Assembly (NCBI RefSeq): GCF_003334405.1
Contig: NZ_QOWM01000005.1
Source: Escherichia coli
GTDB taxonomy: Bacteria > Pseudomonadota > Gammaproteobacteria > Enterobacterales > Enterobacteriaceae
DNA length: 64,000 nt
Strand: one strand, 5' to 3'
Made by a program: the position numbers and the translations under genes. Shown here in pieces: positions 1 to 40,546 of this stretch (positions are counted from its first letter, which is position 1; each line of letters opens with the position of its first letter). Under the pieces are notes generated by a model. That model did not search any database. It worked only from the letters and a program-made list of their open reading frames with translations, and was not told the DNA's origin.

Positions 1-169
1 TCTGGTATTGGGTCAGACGCTGTTTATCCAGCCCACGACCATACAGCAGCCAGCCGCTACGACCTGCGTGGTAATCCAGTGGCATCACTTCATCACCACT
101 TAATGAAAGAGGCAGACCAGGCCATAAAGAGACATCTTCAGGCAGGTCGCACCAGGTAATATTAGGCAT
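1..169 (-). CDS. serB: phosphoserine phosphatase, 5' end only (first 56 codons; gene continues past window start)
   Basis: Minus-strand ATG at 167-169 preceded by AGGAG; translation MPNITWCDLPEDVSLWPGLPLSLSGDEVMPLDYHAGRSGW matches SerB N-terminus; divergent from ytjB. Confidence 0.85.
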   Translation of the reverse strand, partial: MPNITWCDLPEDVSLWPGLPLSLSGDEVMPLDYHAGRSGWLLYGRGLDKQRLTQYQ

Positions 170-274
170 TAAGGCTCCTGTAAAATCGTTCGAAGCAGGG
201 AAAATAACGCATGAGGCTACCTTGTATCCATTGCTTCTGGCAACATTAAGTCTCAAATTTTCAAAGGGTGGAAG

Positions 275-919
275 ATGGCTCGCACAAAACTGAAATTCCG
301 GCTGCATCGGGCAGTGATTGTCCTGTTCTGTCTTGCCTTGTTAGTGGCACTGATGCAGGGGGCGTCATGGTTTAGTCAAAACCACCAGCGACAGCGTAAT
401 CCACAGCTGGAAGAACTGGCCCGCACCCTGGCGCGTCAGGTGACGCTGAACGTTGCACCGCTGATGCGTACCGACTCACCAGATGAAAAACGCATTCAGG
501 CGATCCTCGATCAGTTAACGGATGAAAGCCGCATCCTCGACGCGGGTGTGTATGACGAACAAGGCGATCTTATCGCCCGTTCAGGCGAAAGCGTCGAAGT
601 GCGCGACCGGCTGGCGCTCGACGGTAAAAAAGCAGGCGGCTATTTTAACCAGCAGATTGTCGAGCCAATTGCGGGTAAAAACGGACCGCTCGGCTATCTG
701 CGCCTGACACTCGACACCCATACGCTCGCCACCGAAGCCCAACAGGTGGATAACACCACTAACATTTTACGCCTGATGTTGCTGCTCTCACTGGCAATCG
801 GCGTAGTGCTGACCCGCACGCTGCTACAGGGTAAACGCACCCGCTGGCAGCAATCGCCCTTCCTGTTAACCGCCAGCAAACCGGTGCCGGAAGAGGAAGA
901 AAGCGAGAAAAAAGAGTGA
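275..919 (+). CDS. ytjB: inner membrane protein YtjB (Smp)
   Basis: 214-aa ORF MARTKLKFRLHRAVIVLFCLALLVAL with N-terminal TM segment; sits between serB and lplA. Confidence 0.9.
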   Translation: MARTKLKFRLHRAVIVLFCLALLVALMQGASWFSQNHQRQRNPQLEELARTLARQVTLNVAPLMRTDSPDEKRIQAILDQLTDESRILDAGVYDEQGDLIARSGESVEVRDRLALDGKKAGGYFNQQIVEPIAGKNGPLGYLRLTLDTHTLATEAQQVDNTTNILRLMLLLSLAIGVVLTRTLLQGKRTRWQQSPFLLTASKPVPEEEESEKKE

Positions 920-946
920 CCCATTACTACAAGAAAGGAAATCGTT

Positions 947-1963
947 ATGTCCACATTACGCCTGCTCATCTCTGACTCTTACGACCCGTGGTTTAACCTG
1001 GCGGTGGAAGAGTGTATTTTTCGCCAAATGCCCGCCACGCAGCGCGTTCTGTTTCTCTGGCGCAATGCCGACACGGTAGTGATTGGTCGCGCGCAGAACC
1101 CGTGGAAAGAGTGTAATACCCGGCGGATGGAAGAAGATAACGTCCGCCTGGCGCGGCGCAGTAGCGGTGGCGGCGCGGTGTTCCACGATCTCGGCAATAC
1201 CTGCTTTACCTTTATGGCTGGCAAGCCGGAGTACGATAAAACCATCTCTACGTCGATTGTGCTCAATGCGCTGAACGCGCTCGGCGTCAGCGCCGAAGCG
1301 TCCGGGCGTAACGATCTGGTGGTGAAAACAGTCGAAGGCGACCGCAAAGTCTCAGGCTCGGCCTATCGCGAAACCAAAGATCGTGGCTTCCACCACGGCA
1401 CTTTGCTGCTCAATGCCGACCTTAGCCGCCTGGCAAACTATCTCAATCCGGATAAAAAGAAACTGGCGGCGAAAGGCATTACCTCAGTGCGTTCCCGCGT
1501 GACCAACCTCACCGAGCTGCTGCCGGGGATCACCCATGAGCAGGTTTGCGAGGTCATAACCAAGGCCTTTTTCGCCCATTATGGCGAGCGTGTAGAAGCG
1601 GAAATCATCTCCCCGGACAAAACGCCAGACTTGCCAAACTTCGCCGAAACCTTTGCCCGTCAGAGTAGCTGGGAATGGAACTTCGGTCAGGCTCCGGCAT
1701 TCTCGCATCTGCTGGATGAACGCTTTAGCTGGGGCGGCGTGGAACTGCATTTCGACGTTGAAAAAGGCCATATCACCCGCGCCCAGGTGTTTACCGACAG
1801 CCTCAACCCCGCGCCGCTGGAAGCCCTCGCCGGGCGACTGCAAGGCTGCCTGTACCGCGCGGATATGCTGCAACAAGAGTGCGAAGCGCTGTTGGTTGAC
1901 TTCCCGGACCAGGAAAAAGAGCTACGGGAGTTGTCGACGTGGATAGCGGGGGCGGTAAGGTAA
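947..1963 (+). CDS. lplA: lipoate-protein ligase A
   Basis: 338-aa [28 protein letters not shown], LplA family; RBS AAGGAAA upstream. Confidence 0.95.
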
Positions 1964-1994
1964 CTCGCTGATTAAAATACCAAAGGAAGGGAAT

Positions 1995-2258
1995 ATGATC
2001 GATCTGGAAAACCAGGAGCGGGAGATTATCAATTTAATGTTAAGCCAGCGTATTTCCTGGCTAGCCGCCGTGCGTATCAGGCATAAATTATCGCTTGCTG
2101 AAGTAAGTAAAATGTTAGGTATCTCGATTAATTCTCTAAAACAGATCGAAAAGACGGAACGGCTTAGCTCAAACATCAAAAGCAAAATGGCAGAAATTTA
2201 TGGTTGTCCACCAGAGTTGCTGATATGCCCTTCCTGGATGACGGCTGAACATAAATGA
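1995..2258 (+). CDS. small XRE/HipB-like helix-turn-helix protein (87 aa); possibly the HTH-only remnant of a yjjJ-type HipA-like kinase gene
   Basis: ORF with strong RBS AAGGAAGG 6 nt upstream of ATG; HTH motif LSLAEVSKMLGISINSLKQIEKTER; only 160 bp of AT-rich non-coding DNA follow before the deoD terminator. Confidence 0.6.
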   Translation: MIDLENQEREIINLMLSQRISWLAAVRIRHKLSLAEVSKMLGISINSLKQIEKTERLSSNIKSKMAEIYGCPPELLICPSWMTAEHK

Positions 2259-2353
2259 ATAGATTCGTGAATAGATACTTGAATGGATTTTATTTTCTAT
2301 CCATATGAAAAATAATAGTAAATCTATAAATCAGTTGCTATTGATGAATAGAT

Positions 2354-2386
2354 ACTAAAAAGCCGGAGCAGTCTCCTGCTCCGGCT
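2354..2386 (-). terminator. rho-independent terminator of the deo operon (after deoD)
   Basis: GC hairpin gccggagcag-tctc-ctgctccggc followed on the minus strand by a T-run. Confidence 0.75.
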
Positions 2387-2418
2387 TAACACGACGTTCG
2401 CCTTTCAGCGAAACACAA

Positions 2419-3138
2419 TTACTCTTTATCGCCCAGCAGAACGGATTCCAGTGCGATTTTGATCATGTCGTTGAAGGTGGTCTGACGCTCAGCGGCAGTG
2501 GTCTGCTCGTGAGTGCGGATGTGGTCAGACACGGTGCAGATGGTCAGGGCTTTCGCGCCAAACTCTGCAGCGACGCCGTAGATACCAGCCGCTTCCATTT
2601 CCACGCCGAGGATGCCGTATTTTTCCATCACGTCGAACATTTCGCCGTCCGGAGAGTAGAACAGGTCAGCGGAGAACAGGTTACCCACGCGAGCATCAAC
2701 ACCCAGTGCTTTAGCCGCGTCTACCGCGTTACGCACCATGTCAAAGTCAGCGATAGCGGCAAAGTCATGGTCTTTAAAACGGATACGGTTAACTTTGGAA
2801 TCGGTGCAGGCACCCATACCGATAACGACGTCGCGCAGTTTTACGTGCGGCAGAACTGCGCCACAGGAACCCACGCGGATAATTTTCTTCACGCCGAAAT
2901 CGGTGATCAGTTCTTTGGTGTAGATGGAGCAGGACGGGATACCCATACCGTGACCCATTACGGAAATTTTGCGGCCTTTGTAAGTACCGGTGAAGCCCAG
3001 CATACCGCGAACGTTGTTCACTTCACGGGCATCTTCAAGGAAAGTTTCAGCAATATACTTCGCACGCAGCGGGTCGCCTGGCATCAAAACTACGTCAGCG
3101 AAATCGCCCATTTCTGCATTAATGTGTGGGGTAGCCAT
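2419..3138 (-). CDS. deoD: purine nucleoside phosphorylase
   Basis: 239-aa [39 protein letters not shown]; deoCABD order. Confidence 0.97.
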
Positions 3139-3217
3139 TGTTTTATCCTTATCAACATGTTTTCACCCTCTCCCTGTGGGAGAGGGCCGGGGTGAGGGCA
3201 TCAAGCCGCACCCATTA

Positions 3218-28081: not shown

Positions 28082-29276
<1,195 letters not shown>

Positions 29277-29378
29277 TGAGCGGTAGTAAAGTCCTAAAAC
29301 TTTAACCTGCCGTTAATGTCAACCTTGCGTAATGCACAATTACGTAAACAATTAAAATTATAAATATAGGAGTCCGGC

Positions 29379-34989: not shown

Positions 34990-35016
34990 GCCCCGCTTCG
35001 GCGGGGCTTTGTTCTT
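34990..35016 (+). terminator. hairpin after btsT
   Basis: gccccgc-ttcg-gcggggc followed by tttgttctt. Confidence 0.6.
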
Positions 35017-35029
35017 ATCAGAGTGAACT

Positions 35030-35233
35030 ATGTTTGGTAACTTAGGACAGGCAAAAAAATATCTCGGCCAGGCGGCGAAGATGTTGATTGGCATTCCAGA
35101 CTACGACAACTACGTCGAGCATATGAAGACCAACCATCCCGACAAGCCGTACATGAGCTATGAAGAATTCTTCCGCGAACGCCAGAACGCACGCTACGGC
35201 GGCGATGGTAAAGGCGGTATGCGCTGTTGTTAA
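35030..35233 (+). CDS. yjiX: small protein YjiX (DUF466)
   Basis: 67-aa [51 protein letters not shown]. Confidence 0.85.
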
Positions 35234-35243
35234 TGGAGAGAGC

Positions 35244-36200
35244 ATGAACCCGATTGCAGTTACCCTACTCACCGGTTTTTTAGGCGCGGGCAAAACCACC
35301 CTGCTGCGCCATATTCTTAACGAACAACACGGCTACAAGATTGCCGTGATTGAAAACGAATTCGGCGAAGTCTCCGTTGATGATCAACTGATTGGCGACC
35401 GCGCCACGCAGATCAAAACGCTGACCAACGGCTGCATCTGCTGTTCGCGCTCCAACGAGCTGGAAGACGCACTACTCGACCTGCTGGATAATCTCGACAA
35501 GGGCAATATTCAGTTCGACCGTCTGGTCATTGAATGCACCGGCATGGCCGATCCCGGCCCGATTATTCAGACCTTTTTCTCCCATGAGATTTTATGCCAG
35601 CGCTACCTGCTGGACGGCGTGATTGCGCTGGTGGATGCGGTACATGCCGATGAGCAGATGAACCAGTTCACCATCGCCCAGTCCCAGGTTGGCTACGCCG
35701 ACCGTATTCTGCTGACGAAAACCGACGTCGCAGGCGAAGCAGAGAAACTGCGTGAACGCCTGGCGCGCATCAACGCCCGCGCACCGGTCTACACCGTTAC
35801 CCACGGCGATATCGACCTGGGCCTTCTGTTCAACACCAACGGTTTTATGCTGGAAGAAAACGTCGTCAGCACCAAACCGCGTTTCCACTTTATCACGGAC
35901 AAACAAAACGATATTTCGTCGATTGTGGTGGAACTGGATTACCCGGTAGATATCAGCGAAGTTTCCCGGGTGATGGAAAACCTGCTGCTGGAGTCGGCGG
36001 ATAAACTACTGCGTTACAAAGGGATGCTATGGATTGACGGCGAACCTAACCGCCTGCTATTCCAGGGCGTCCAACGCCTCTACAGCGCCGACTGGGACCG
36101 CCCGTGGGGCGATGAAAAACCGCATAGCACGATGGTGTTTATCGGGATTCAGTTGCCGGAGGAAGAGATTCGGGCAGCGTTTGCGGGGTTGAGGAAGTAA
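35244..36200 (+). CDS. yjiA: COG0523/CobW-family GTPase YjiA
   Basis: 318-aa product MNPIAVTLLTGFLGAGKTTLLRHIL with P-loop and CxCC motif. Confidence 0.93.
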   Translation: MNPIAVTLLTGFLGAGKTTLLRHILNEQHGYKIAVIENEFGEVSVDDQLIGDRATQIKTLTNGCICCSRSNELEDALLDLLDNLDKGNIQFDRLVIECTGMADPGPIIQTFFSHEILCQRYLLDGVIALVDAVHADEQMNQFTIAQSQVGYADRILLTKTDVAGEAEKLRERLARINARAPVYTVTHGDIDLGLLFNTNGFMLEENVVSTKPRFHFITDKQNDISSIVVELDYPVDISEVSRVMENLLLESADKLLRYKGMLWIDGEPNRLLFQGVQRLYSADWDRPWGDEKPHSTMVFIGIQLPEEEIRAAFAGLRK

Positions 36201-36233
36201 TTTTGGATGATGGCCGCCATGTGGCGGCCTGAA

Positions 36234-36536
36234 TTATTTTTTGTTCTGATCGCGCAGCATCGCTTCACGTAAAATTGCGTTCAGGCGAGTTTGATAGCCT
36301 TTACCTGGTCGCTTCAACCATTCCATCACATCAGCATCAATACGCACCGAAGCCTGAGTTTTCAATGGCCGATAAAACTTACCGCGTTCGGCGTTAGACC
36401 ATTGCTCATCGCTGGAAGGTGGGATATCACTGTAATCAATATCTTCGTCGGATTTATTCGCCAGCGCCTTCAGTTCGGCCTCATGCTGCACATCGAGTGT
36501 AGAGGAGGTCCCTCGTTTATGTTTAACCATGCTCAT
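36234..36536 (-). CDS. BrnA-like antitoxin (100 aa, RHH/CopG-like)
   Basis: ORF from ATG 36536 (MSMVKHKRGTSSTLDVQHEAELKAL...VRIDADVMEWLKRPGKGYQTRLNAILREAML); start overlaps the stop of the upstream toxin frame (ATGAGCATGGTTAA). Confidence 0.7.
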   Translation of the reverse strand: MSMVKHKRGTSSTLDVQHEAELKALANKSDEDIDYSDIPPSSDEQWSNAERGKFYRPLKTQASVRIDADVMEWLKRPGKGYQTRLNAILREAMLRDQNKK

Positions 36537-36794
36537 AGCGATTCCTCTCTTTACGATCTGCTTTTCGTGCACTGATGATTCGAATAATTTCATTTCCGCT
36601 TTCGAAACGGATGGTATGCGCAACCAGAATAACCACGATGCCGTAATGTCTGCCAGCGATACTCACCGTTTTCTATGCGTTCTTGCTGTGACAAATGTTG
36701 TGGATCATCAAACAATAACACCGCATCTTCAAAGCGGATGCCATGTTTCACCCGATTACTTTTGGCCTTGTTTTCATCCCATTCAAACTCCATT
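36523..36794 (-). pseudogene. BrnT-like (DUF497) toxin gene disrupted by a 1-nt frameshift near 36640-36650
   Basis: N-terminal frame MEFEWDENKAKSNRVKHGIRFEDAVLLFDDPQHLSQQERIENGEYRWQTL then runs into a stop at 36590; the BrnT-like C-terminus GIVVILVAHTIRFESGNEIIRIISARKADRKERNRYEHG is in a different frame ending at TAA 36523. Confidence 0.65.
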
Positions 36795-36997
36795 GGCATA
36801 ATTGCCATCCCTAATTGTATATACAAAAATGTATCTACAATTATTCTGCAATTATAGCGTTGATGTTGGAAATAGCATCACGTTTCGAATAATCAACCAT
36901 GAAATTGACAATGAGTAAGTTGGACTTGATTCATCCAATAGAATTTCTCGCCTGACATGGCACACTAAACACCTCGCTGTCGGGTAATGACTCCAAC

Positions 36998-37501
36998 TTA
37001 CTGATAGTGTTTTATGTTCAGATAATGCCCGATGACCTTGTCATGCAGCTCCACCGATTTTGAGAACGACAGTGACTTCCGTCCCAGCCTTGCCAGATGT
37101 TGTCTCAGATTCAGATTATGTCGCTCAATGCGCTGAGTGTAACGCTTGCTGATAACGTGCAGCTTTCCCTTCAGGCGTGATTCATACAGCGGCCAGCCAT
37201 CCGTCATCTATACCACGACCTCAAAGGCCGACAGCAGGCTCAGAAGACGTTCCAGTGTGGCCAGAGTGCGTTCACCGAAGACGTGCGCCACAACCGTCCT
37301 CCGTATCCTGTCATACGCGTAAAACAGCCAGCGCTGACGTGATTTAGCACCGACGTAGCCCCACTGTTCGTCCATTTCAGCGCAGACAATCACATCACTG
37401 CCCGGTTGTATGCGCGAGGTTACCGACTGCGGCCTGAGTTTTTTAAGTGACGTAAAACCGTGTTGAGGCCAACGCCCATAATGCGTGCACTGGCGCGACA
37501 T
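36998..37501 (-). CDS. insB: IS1 InsB reading frame (expressed as InsAB' by frameshifting)
   Basis: ORF ending [69 protein letters not shown]. Confidence 0.9.
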
Positions 37502-37695
37502 CCGACGCCATTCATGGCCATATCAATGATTTTCTGGTGCGTACCGGGCTGAGAGGCGGTGTAAGTGAACTGTAGTTGCCATGTTTTACGGCAATGAGAG
37601 CAGAGATAGCGCTGATGTCCGGCAGTGCTTTTGCCGTTACGCACCACGCCTTCAGTAGCGGAGCAGGAAGGACATCTGATGGAAATGGAAGCCAC
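37420..37695 (-). CDS. insA: IS1 protein InsA
   Basis: 91-aa [46 protein letters not shown]. Confidence 0.95.
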
Positions 37696-37750
37696 GCAAG
37701 CACCTTAAAATCACCATCATACACTAAATCAGTAAGTTGGCAGCATTACC

Positions 37751-37846
37751 CGGATTCCATAATGATTCCACGCCCCGTTATGACAAATCTGCCGCCGATC
37801 TTGCCTGGCAAAGGACACTGAAATGGTTCGATAAATATCTCTCCTG
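37751..37846 (+). pseudogene. 3' remnant (31 codons plus stop) of a dienelactone-hydrolase-family gene truncated by IS1
   Basis: frame starting directly at the IS1 boundary encodes [31 protein letters not shown]-stop, which resembles a DLH-family C-terminus. Confidence 0.5.
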
Positions 37847-37965
37847 ATAGGTTTATCTCTTACGGGATTACGTCTTAAACAAGCATGAAAAAATAGCGTG
37901 CGCAAAAGTCGTTCTTTGCCTAAAATATCGCTATATATGGCGATATATAGCGAATAAAGTGAACG

Positions 37966-39225
37966 ATGAATAACCATTTTGGTAAAGGCTTAATGGCGGG
38001 ATTAAAAGCAACGCATGCCGCCACGCTGTTTTTCCCGATGGAGTTGATTTTGTATGATTTTGCCGCGTACCTGTCGACGGACCTGATTCAGCCGGGGATC
38101 ATTAATGTGGTCCGTGATTTTAATGCCGATGTCAGTCTGGCCCCGGCAGCCGTCAGTCTCTATCTCGCGGGCGGTATGGCGTTACAGTGGCTGCTGGGGC
38201 CGCTTTCCGACAGGATTGGCCGCAGGCCGGTGCTGATTACCGGGGCGCTAATATTTACCCTTGCCTGCGCTGCGACAATGTTCACAACGTCTATGACACA
38301 GTTTCTTATCGCGCGTGCAATTCAGGGCACCAGTATCTGTTTTATTGCCACCGTTGGTTATGTCACGGTGCAGGAGGCGTTCGGCCAGACAAAAGGGATC
38401 AGGTTGATGGCGATTATCACCTCCATCGTACTGATTGCGCCGATTATTGGCCCGCTTTCCGGCGCAGCTCTGATGCACTTTGTGCACTGGAAAGTCCTTT
38501 TTGCCATCATTGCGGTTATGGGGTTTATCTCATTTGTTGGCTTACTGCTGGCGATGCCAGAGACGGTGAAGCGCGGCGCGGTTCCATTTAGCGCCAAAAG
38601 CGTCTTGCGCGATTTTCGTAATGTCTTTTGCAATCGGCTGTTCCTCTTTGGCGCAGCAACCATCTCTTTAAGCTATATCCCAATGATGAGTTGGGTGGCT
38701 GTCTCGCCGGTGATCCTGATCGACGCGGGCGGCTTAACAACTTCGCAGTTCGCCTGGACACAGGTTCCGGTGTTCGGCGCGGTGATTGTCGCGAATGCCA
38801 TCGTGGCGCGTTTCGTTAAAGATCCAACCGAACCGCGCTTCATCTGGCGTGCCGTACCCATTCAACTGGTCGGCCTCGCGCTGTTGATTATCGGCAATCT
38901 GCTGTCACCGCACGTCTGGCTGTGGTCGGTGCTGGGCACCAGTTTGTATGCTTTCGGGATTGGTTTGATCTTCCCGACCTTATTCCGCTTTACGCTTTTT
39001 TCCAATAACTTACCGAAAGGGACCGTCTCCGCATCGCTGAATATGGTGATCCTGATGGTGATGTCTGTCTCGGTCGAAATCGGCCGCTGGCTGTGGTTTA
39101 ACGGCGGTCGCTTGCCGTTTCATCTGTTAGCCGTCGTGGCGGGCGTTATCGTCGTTTTCACCCTGGCAGGATTGCTTAATCGCGTGCGCCAACATCAGGC
39201 TGCCGAGCTGGCGGAGGAGCGGTGA
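37966..39225 (+). CDS. mdtM: MFS multidrug efflux transporter MdtM
   Basis: 419-aa ORF with MFS motif [16 protein letters not shown]; N-terminal residues and true start not verified. Confidence 0.88.
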
Positions 39226-39265
39226 TTTTTGCGCGATCCTGCCGTCAGGCTCTATTCTTAACGTT

Positions 39266-40546
39266 ATGAATAAACTCATTGAACTCAGACGCGCCAAAAT
39301 GTTGGCGCTCTCTTTACTGCTTATCGCCGCTGCTACCTTTGTCGTTACGCTGTTTTTGCCGCCCAATTTTTGGGTGAGCGGCGTGAAGGCGATTGCTGAA
39401 GCGGCGATGGTCGGCGCGCTGGCGGACTGGTTTGCGGTGGTGGCGCTGTTTCGCCGCGTGCCGATTCCGATCATTTCTCGTCATACGGCGATTATCCCGC
39501 GTAATAAAGACCGGATTGGCGAAAATCTCGGCCAGTTCGTGCAGGAAAAATTTCTCGATACCCAGTCGCTGGTGGCATTGATTCGACGTCACGAACCGGC
39601 GTTGTTGATTGGCAACTGGTTTAGTCAGCCGGAGAACGCCCGCCGCGTTGGTCAGCATCTGTTGCAGATCATGAGCGGTTTTCTTGAACTGACCGATGAT
39701 GCGCGTATTCAGCGCCTGCTTAAGCGCGCGGTCCATCGGGCGATTGATAAGGTCGATCTTTCCGGCACCAGTGCGTTGATGCTGGAGAGTATGACCAAAA
39801 ACAATCGTCATCAGGTGCTGCTGGATACGCTGATCGCACAGTTGATCGCCCTTCTCCAGCGCGATAAATCGCGCAAGTTTATTGCCCAGCAAATTGTTCG
39901 CTGGCTGGAGAGCGAGCATCCGCTGAAAGCCAAAATTTTGCCTACTGAATGGCTGGGCGAACATAGCGCGGAGTTGGTTTCTGACGCGGTGAATTCTTTG
40001 CTTGATGATATCAGCCGCGATCGTGCGCATCAGATCCGCCATGCATTTGATCGCGCCACCTTTGCCCTGATCGACAAGTTGAAAAACGATCCGGAAATGG
40101 CAGCGCGAGCCGATGCCGTAAAAAGTTATCTGAAAGAAGATGAAGCTTTTAACCGCTATCTCAGTGAATTGTGGGGGGATTTACGGGAATGGCTGAAAGC
40201 GGATATCAACAGTGAAGATTCTCGTGTGAAAGAACGTATCGCGCGGGCGGGTCAATGGTTTGGCGAAACGTTAATTGCCGATGATGCCTTGCGGGCATCG
40301 TTAAATGGTCACCTGGAACAAGCCGCGCACCGCGTCGCGCCTGAGTTTTCCGCATTCCTGACGCGCCACATCAGCGATACAGTAAAAAGCTGGGATGCTC
40401 GGGATATGTCGCGGCAAATCGAGTTAAATATCGGCAAAGATCTGCAGTTTATCCGTGTCAACGGTACGCTGGTTGGCGGTTGTATTGGGCTAATTTTATA
40501 TTTGTTGTCGCAGCTCCCGGCCTTGTTCCCCCTCAGCAATTTTTAG
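39266..40546 (+). CDS. yjiN: DUF445-family inner membrane protein YjiN
   Basis: 426-aa [34 protein letters not shown]. Confidence 0.85.

Follow-up and report, generated by a model that had tools for sequence, protein, structure and literature searches.

The stretch of DNA described here (the window) comprises 64,000 nt of Escherichia coli and belongs to contig NZ_QOWM01000005.1 of assembly GCF_003334405.1. The interval examined, positions 36201-37965, lies between yjiA and the reading frame that continues into the transporter gene mdtM; it contains the antitoxin gene brnA, the pseudogene of the toxin brnT, a copy of the insertion sequence IS1 and the 3' end of a copy of yghX. It is located at the immigration control region (ICR), a known hypervariable defence island which has been equated with 'hotspot #36' (PMC12707154). 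In this best-known defence hotspot of E. coli the window shows an ordinary scar left by an IS1 deletion, without any defence system that is novel or intact; the interval is very probably a collapsed, non-functional allele of the ICR and not a system. The scar itself is common and the hotspot is known; the new points are a chimeric yghW'-'mdtM gene with a promoter swap and an evolving ribosome-binding site. Neither of these two was found in the literature searched, where the combination of yghW and mdtM yielded one unrelated paper. The current annotation hides the fusion, as its pieces are named just 'mdtM' and 'partial dienelactone hydrolase'.

Population counts were made in 5,426 complete E. 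coli genomes. BrnA and BrnT were assigned to families by Pfam, MdtM and YghX by NCBIfam models; NCBIfam gave no family for BrnA, BrnT or YghW.

The yjiA-mdtM interval

The gene yjiA occupies 35244..36200 on the plus strand. K-12 YjiA residues 1-318 align to 35244-36197 with 99% identity (tblastn) and are followed by the stop codon at 36198-36200, where an initial annotation, made from the letters alone, had already placed the end of the gene. At the first base past this stop codon the sequence departs from K-12. In K-12 yjiA and mdtM do not lie within 2 kb of each other but are separated by 19,389 bp, which carry mrr, hsdRMS, symE/symR, mcrBC, yjiV/T/S/R, rpnD and ytiE, in line with the content named in the initial annotation; the short interval noted there is also real, about 1.77 kb. 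As in the K-12 ICR (mrr-hsdRMS-symER-mcrBC), the variable segment occupies the same chromosomal position, begins right after the yjiA stop codon and is followed by mdtM (MdtM body from 38014) and yjiN (from 39266), a gene order shared with K-12 and 89-3156. Unlike in K-12, the interval (1.8 versus 19.4 kb) has neither any K-12 ICR gene nor the framework genes yjiT, yjiS, yjiR, rpnD and ytiE.

When all ICR proteins of K-12 and of strain MS14384 were searched against the 64-kb window by tblastn, only YjiA and MdtM were matched; Hsd, Mcr, Mrr, SymE and the MS14384 restriction endonuclease (REase) gave no match. PADLOC returned no match among the junction proteins, BrnA and BrnT included. The variable segment thus has the boundaries of hotspot #36 without its defence genes, and the expectations that the Hsd and Mcr/Mrr systems would be missing here and that no intact novel system would be present both stand. 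A 2025 review puts the share of enterobacterial ICRs with a type I system at only 36% (PMC12707154). A naturally restriction-less allele at the same locus is the 'empty' ICR of E. coli C, which is described in reviews summarising Sibley and Raleigh 2004 as lying between yjiS and yjiA, keeping a type I hsdR remnant and being 13 kb shorter than in K-12 (PMC3874153, PMC12707154). Measured against this description, the window differs in that it has also lost yjiS, yjiR and rpn, an IS1 stands at the deletion and the 5' end of mdtM has been replaced. The text of the hotspot paper makes no mention of yjiA or mdtM.

The initial annotation had listed a BrnT/BrnA-like pair, an IS1 without target-site duplication and a tail of 31 codons, all of which are present where it put them. 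Its description of the toxin-antitoxin pair as degraded holds for brnT only, as brnA is intact. The brnA gene (36234..36536, minus strand) encodes a 100-aa antitoxin with a BrnA_antitoxin domain (PF14384, E=3.1e-17, residues 37-93), and the identical coding sequence is labelled BrnA by the Prokaryotic Genome Annotation Pipeline (PGAP) in three further sequences (L001, L007 and L009, the last being STEC383). The brnT pseudogene (36523..36799, minus strand) has lost 11 bp between 36646 and 36647, as defined by alignment to the common intact allele, and its frame shifts after about residue 50 of 95. The intact 95-aa BrnT allele matches PF04365 (E=4.7e-24, residues 7-88) and the solved structures PDB 7vd7 (E=4e-52) and 3u97 (E=1.6e-4); the window lacks an intact BrnT toxin domain. 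The type II toxin-antitoxin system BrnT/BrnA of Brucella abortus has both Pfam domains and the same arrangement, with the toxin gene upstream of and overlapping the antitoxin gene, and differs in that brnT of the window is a frameshifted pseudogene. As judged from the reading frames, brnT is dead and brnA is left as an orphan antitoxin gene. A GC-rich, terminator-like hairpin, GGCCGCCATGTGGCGGCC, was located by a consensus scan between the convergent genes yjiA and brnA (36212..36229).

A brnT gene lies beside yjiA in 1,781 genomes, and brnAT is counted among the three toxin-antitoxin systems of the ICR (PMC12707154). The 11-bp deletion, whose edges carry no repeats, occurs in 24 genomes, where the gene is annotated as 'frameshifted'. 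Two of these carriers were inspected (STEC383 and SCU-172); both have an intact IS1 and a right-hand structure unlike that of the window. The best match to the window over 35000-39500 reaches 99.7%, and no complete genome combines the brnT deletion with the chimeric gene described below, so that the allele of the window is to be regarded as a recombinant mosaic of known parts.

In MS14384, a full-length relative, yjiA, brnA and brnT precede an Mrr-like type IV REase, type I hsdM/S/R, symE, yjiS, yjiR, rpn and then mdtM. The type IV enzyme has 388 aa and a GTG start codon and is classified by PADLOC as mREase_IV/PDC-S02. The window and this cassette share yjiA, brnA, brnT and the spacer up to TCGCTGTCG with 96-97% identity, including the residual intergenic DNA upstream of brnT (36800..36982, corresponding to L006 20611-20793 in MS14384). 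The IS1 of the window begins directly after TCGCTGTCG, 13 bp before the GTG of the REase gene, and about 11.6 kb from this gene to the mdtM promoter are missing. Since MS14384 combines the brnAT flank with other defence genes, the flank derives from an ICR cassette other than that of K-12. The initial reading of an island that was exchanged and then eroded by IS activity is therefore supported in both parts, the first by the difference between the MS14384 and K-12 cassettes, the second by an IS1 just ahead of the REase start, without target duplication and with everything to its right gone. In strain Ec-91 (L018 2868-3565) an independent IS1 with an intact transposase interrupts the 5' end of brnT, and the type IV REase and type I restriction-modification genes are retained; because of this separate insertion the brnT-REase spacer looks like a repeated IS1 target.

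IS1 elements are about 768 bp long and have imperfect terminal inverted repeats of about 23 bp and the genes insA and insB', joined by an A6C frameshift site. The copy in the window (IS1F-like, 768 bp, 36983..37750, minus strand) agrees with this structure: it has terminal inverted repeats (GGTAATGACTCC... and ...GGCAGCATTACC), the frameshift site TTAAAAAAC and an intact insA (37420-37695; open reading frame of 91 aa), and it is 99-100% identical to annotated IS1F copies. The insB frame contains an internal TAG (37208-37210; TGG in STEC383), which PGAP notes as 'programmed frameshift; internal stop'; judged by this reading frame, the element has no intact InsAB' and is unable to supply its own transposase. 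The flanks TCGCTGTCG and CGGATTCCA differ, so that there is no target-site duplication of 8-9 bp. In strain ET791 (L019 1501-2268) an IS1 that is 100% identical to that of the window, internal stop included, interrupts tssD/hcp; such defective copies have therefore been mobilised, presumably by transposase supplied in trans. The insB TAG had been considered as a phylogenetic marker and was dropped because of this identical copy at another locus.

The yghX-yghW duplicate and the chimeric mdtM

The right-hand part of the interval was not correctly understood at first. To the right of IS1, 215 bp match yghX and the yghX-yghW spacer of the distant hyb-gpr locus, and the match continues through the ATG at 37966 to 38020. 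Positions 37751-38020 therefore represent one 270-bp copy of yghX-yghW, which comprises the 3' end of yghX, the promoter and ribosome-binding site of yghW and the first 18 yghW codons. The copy is 98-99% identical to native copies. In UMNK88, itself a carrier of the chimera, both native genes, yghX and yghW, are whole and contain no IS1; the 270 bp are therefore a duplicate. The last 31 codons and stop codon of yghX (37751..37847, plus strand; YghX-family dienelactone hydrolase) are 98-99% identical to the native gene of K-12, UTAK-6 and UMNK88. The full native protein, an alpha/beta hydrolase of about 295 aa, matches NF041440; this stump is not full-length and is labelled by PGAP as a partial dienelactone hydrolase. 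It is followed by the yghX-yghW intergenic copy (37848..37965, plus strand), identified by alignment to the native loci, and by yghW codons 1-18 (37966..38020, plus strand), delimited by a three-way alignment of the window, K-12 mdtM and native yghW. The stump had first been taken for the end of an unrelated gene; the 31 codons are there, but they are no leftover of the island and belong to a duplicated yghX-yghW piece that is fused to mdtM.

The ATG at 37966, formerly assigned as the mdtM start, is the start codon of yghW, and the match to K-12 MdtM sets in no earlier than residue 8 (38014). The crossover falls within the 7-bp sequence CATGCCG (38014-38020), common to yghW codons 17-19 and mdtM codons 8-10, and is in frame: H17-A18 of YghW correspond to H8-A9 of MdtM, and the fusion enters mdtM at codon 10. 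The resulting chimeric yghW'-'mdtM open reading frame (37966..39225, plus strand) encodes 419 aa and matches the MdtM equivalog NF011932 over residues 15-414 with 853 bits (cutoff 700); identity to K-12 MdtM residues 8-410 is 97.8% (tblastn). The predicted chimeric protein would consist of YghW(1-16), the shared residues HA and MdtM(10-410), with MPRFFTR swapped for 16 residues. PGAP calls mdtM as 410 aa from the internal ATG at 37993. Neither the native promoter and 5' untranslated region of mdtM nor the native N-terminus is present, the 215 bp upstream and codons 1-18 being derived from yghX-yghW.

A private change of the window, GCG>GAG at 38041-38043 (C>A at 38042), alters MdtM by A17E (K-12 numbering) in the first transmembrane segment; D22, a key acidic residue aligned with E26 of MdfA, follows five residues later. 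It is not present in any of 661 other chimera carriers and could be either a functional change or a sequencing error.

The captured promoter and Shine-Dalgarno region

A constitutive sigma-70 promoter, TTGCCT-17-GACAAT, has been reported for yghW (PMC3946193). The version in the window reads TTGCCT (37916-21)-17-GGCGAT (37939-44). A simple promoter scan missed the published promoter and flagged only matches of 9/12, among them the promoter-like hybrid TTGGCA-18-AATGAT at 37737-37766, which has its -35 in the right terminal repeat of IS1 and its -10 in the yghX stump and points towards the chimeric mdtM; this putative hybrid might add transcription driven from the IS1 end.

Just upstream of the Shine-Dalgarno sequence lies a palindrome (37929-37952) with perfect 10-bp arms, CGCTATATAT-N4-ATATATAGCG, whose 4-nt loop (37939-37942) consists of the first four bases of the yghW -10 hexamer. 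This loop is hypervariable, with GACA, GGTG and AACA in native copies and GGCG, GACA and GTAG in chimeric copies. Six chimeric copies were compared with three native copies, and the 270 bp of the chimeric copies are near-invariant except for the palindrome loop and the Shine-Dalgarno positions 37956-37958. All three native copies have GAGG within a 7-nt match, GAGGTGA, to the anti-Shine-Dalgarno sequence. The window has AAAG (37956-59) in place of the native GAGG, and the six chimeric copies show AAAG (three times), AAGG, GAAG and GGGG, the last in UMNK88.

These variants were counted across the complete genomes by exact-seed 40-mer searches. The native GAGG 40-mer was found in 5,360 of the 5,426 genomes (98.8%), yet at only 5,370 places, and therefore essentially no chimeric copy keeps the native Shine-Dalgarno sequence. 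The AAAG variant occurs in 430 genomes, AAGG in 106 and GAAG in 145. At least three to four separate changes have accumulated in these 3 nt, versus one to two elsewhere in the 270 bp, and this crowding argues for selection on the translation of the captured pump. The recurrent weakening of the Shine-Dalgarno sequence suggests that expression of the chimeric mdtM may have been tuned down after the fusion. The GAAG variant was found at two places in two genomes, and 66 genomes are without the native GAGG 40-mer; both observations hint that the yghW 5' regions of chimeric and native copies have exchanged sequence by gene conversion.

Alleles and origin of the scar

The junction of brnAT with IS1 is present in about 1,100-1,113 genomes (approximately 20%), in three alleles with the same left junction. 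In 451 genomes IS1 stands about 260 bp ahead of the mdtM ATG, next to the native upstream region (allele (i)); some of these have an intact insB, for example STEC383, in which the 11-bp brnT deletion is found too. The chimera (allele (ii)) is carried by 661-664 genomes (about 12%). Further IS1 rearrangements make up allele (iii), exemplified by SCU-172 (L010 6400-8600), in which the brnAT-IS1 junction is followed by a DUF2686 (yjiC-like) fragment, a second IS1A and then ytiD and iraD; this order indicates a further IS1-mediated deletion or inversion by which mdtM through yjiH were removed or displaced. The yjiX-yjiA flank haplotype of the window, L001 and L007 equals that of STEC383 except at position 35895, where L001 and L007 differ. 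The haplotype shared by the chimeric genomes and STEC383 suggests that the chimera arose from allele (i).

The combination of about 11.6 kb missing beside IS1 and no target duplication is the signature of an IS1 adjacent deletion or of IS1-IS1 recombination. IS1-promoted adjacent deletions are an established process. The ancestor had the MS14384 type of cassette (brnAT / Mrr-like type IV REase / type I hsdMSR / symE / yjiS / yjiR / rpn), and one of these two events would have removed the DNA to the right of IS1 from it. The simplest product, IS1 next to the native mdtM upstream region, survives as the allele of the 451 genomes. In the chimeric version the 270-bp duplicate stands in place of the mdtM promoter region and codons 1-7. 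Its left joint coincides exactly with the IS1 terminus and is therefore a joint made by transposase or by IS1 homology; its right joint is the 7-bp in-frame microhomology, which speaks for illegitimate recombination. Considering both joints, the likeliest route, to which we give about an even chance, would have two steps. A tandem duplication of the segment from mdtM to yghW (about 1.4 Mb in K-12), joined by the microhomology, would create the yghW'::'mdtM join point, and an IS1-promoted deletion would then take away the first copy to a point 270 bp short of the join. This route predicts an intact native yghX-yghW, as is seen in UMNK88. Gene fusions to foreign promoters at the join points of tandem duplications were reportedly described by Anderson and Roth in 1978. 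The window resembles such fusions and IS1 adjacent deletions in that an IS end joins new DNA without target duplication and a short-homology, in-frame joint puts a gene under a foreign promoter; it differs in that no duplication intermediate was observed and the route is inferred.

The two joints would also be accounted for if the 270-bp patch had been imported in one step by homology-facilitated illegitimate recombination, with another cell or a sister chromosome as the source of donor DNA that carried an IS1 in its native yghX, and with the resident IS1 and CATGCCG serving as joints, so that the simple allele was turned into the chimera. A left joint at the IS1 end and a right joint at a microhomology fit the one-sided anchoring expected of such an event, IS1 copies are numerous in these genomes (up to at least 40 match pieces), and 2-3 single-nucleotide differences separate the IS1 of the chimera type from that of the simple type. 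An IS1::yghX junction was, however, not found outside the chimera (664 junction carriers versus 661-662 chimera carriers), native yghX is intact and without IS1 in UMNK88, and E. coli is not known to be naturally transformable at appreciable rates, which also counts against import; we regard this route as rather unlikely. Much less probable, and contradicted by the alignments, is the model implicit in the initial annotation, in which a single IS1 deletion within the island made the whole structure, the stump being the leftover of a resident accessory gene and mdtM being native from 37966. It explains the IS1 without target duplication and the missing ICR genes, but not why the 270 bp are 98-99% identical to core yghX-yghW about 1.4 Mb away, itself intact in a carrier genome, why MdtM homology starts only at residue 8, or why 451 genomes have a separate allele with IS1 beside the native mdtM upstream region. 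Two routes to the chimera were also considered: recombination of the resident IS1 with an IS1 in native yghX is unsupported, native yghX being intact in UMNK88 and IS1::yghX junctions occurring only with the chimera, and excision and reintegration is rejected, since the reciprocal fusion mdtM'::yghW as well as an IS1 at the native locus would be expected and UMNK88 has neither.

Still fainter is the prospect that what is left forms a minimal but working defence locus, in which BrnTA would serve as a toxin-antitoxin module of abortive infection. Both brnT and brnA are intact in most carriers, and the ICR toxin-antitoxin systems include brnAT (PMC12707154), but brnT of the window is frameshifted after about 50 of its 95 residues, which excludes toxin activity, PADLOC does not match BrnA or BrnT, and no evidence of an anti-phage role of BrnTA was found. 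Least credible of all is an assembly collapse across IS1 repeats in a genome that really has a full ICR. Multicopy IS1 can break or collapse short-read assemblies, but the same left junction, IS1 and right junction recur in independently closed genomes, 661 to about 1,113 of them, and the flank haplotypes are continuous, so that the collapse named in the initial annotation as grounds for refuting its reading can be set aside.

Several points weigh against the scheme of an IS1 deletion scar later modified by a duplication. None of its expected intermediates was found in the 5,426 genomes: neither an IS1 simply inserted in front of the REase gene and flanked by a 9-bp duplication, nor a chimera joint with a longer yghX piece, nor a genome bearing the duplication. 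The simple insertion was sought with a synthetic query made of the IS1 end, the target-site duplication and the REase start, which returned just the independent IS1 inside brnT of Ec-91. The duplication route needs two rare events, a 1.4-Mb duplication and, soon after it, a precise IS1 deletion. The order of events is deduced from parsimony and flank haplotypes. Some Shine-Dalgarno variants could have arisen by gene conversion between the two copies, and the variant counts add up to slightly more than the number of chimeras, so that some variants must be located at native loci. Transcription and translation of mdtM from yghW signals, including the start codon used, as well as selection on the Shine-Dalgarno sequence, are predictions from sequence only.

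The fusion represents a natural and widespread in-frame gene fusion with a promoter swap by illegitimate recombination beside an IS. We offer only tentatively, as something rather to be doubted than expected, that it may be an adaptive capture of a promoter and ribosome-binding site and not a neutral scar: collapse of the ICR would have removed the promoter context of mdtM, the gene would have come under the control of the constitutive promoter of yghW and of the 7-nt Shine-Dalgarno match that goes with it, and the Shine-Dalgarno sequence and the -10 would then have been weakened repeatedly by selection against over-production of the transporter. If so, 12% of E. coli genomes would have an MdtM whose level, regulation and N-terminus are changed, with possible effects on efflux and on the tolerance of bile salts and alkaline pH. 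The allelic series GAGG, AAGG, GAAG, AAAG and GGGG could serve to test the expression tuning of a captured membrane transporter. For defence biology the relevance is small: about one fifth of complete E. coli genomes have an IS1-collapsed, restriction-free ICR that is also without the framework genes yjiS, yjiR and rpn, a useful background where yjiA, yjiS or mdtM serve as hotspot anchors.

A search of 35900-38300 against Rfam at a permissive threshold gave nothing credible, the sole match being a sub-threshold drz-agam-1 (E=0.31). Elsewhere in the window an IS5 (28082-29277) with a 326-aa InsH open reading frame (28228-29208, minus strand) is about 93% identical to the IS5 of UMNK88; it stands in place of lgoR between lgoD and lgoT, where about 1 kb of the UMNK88 sequence is missing.

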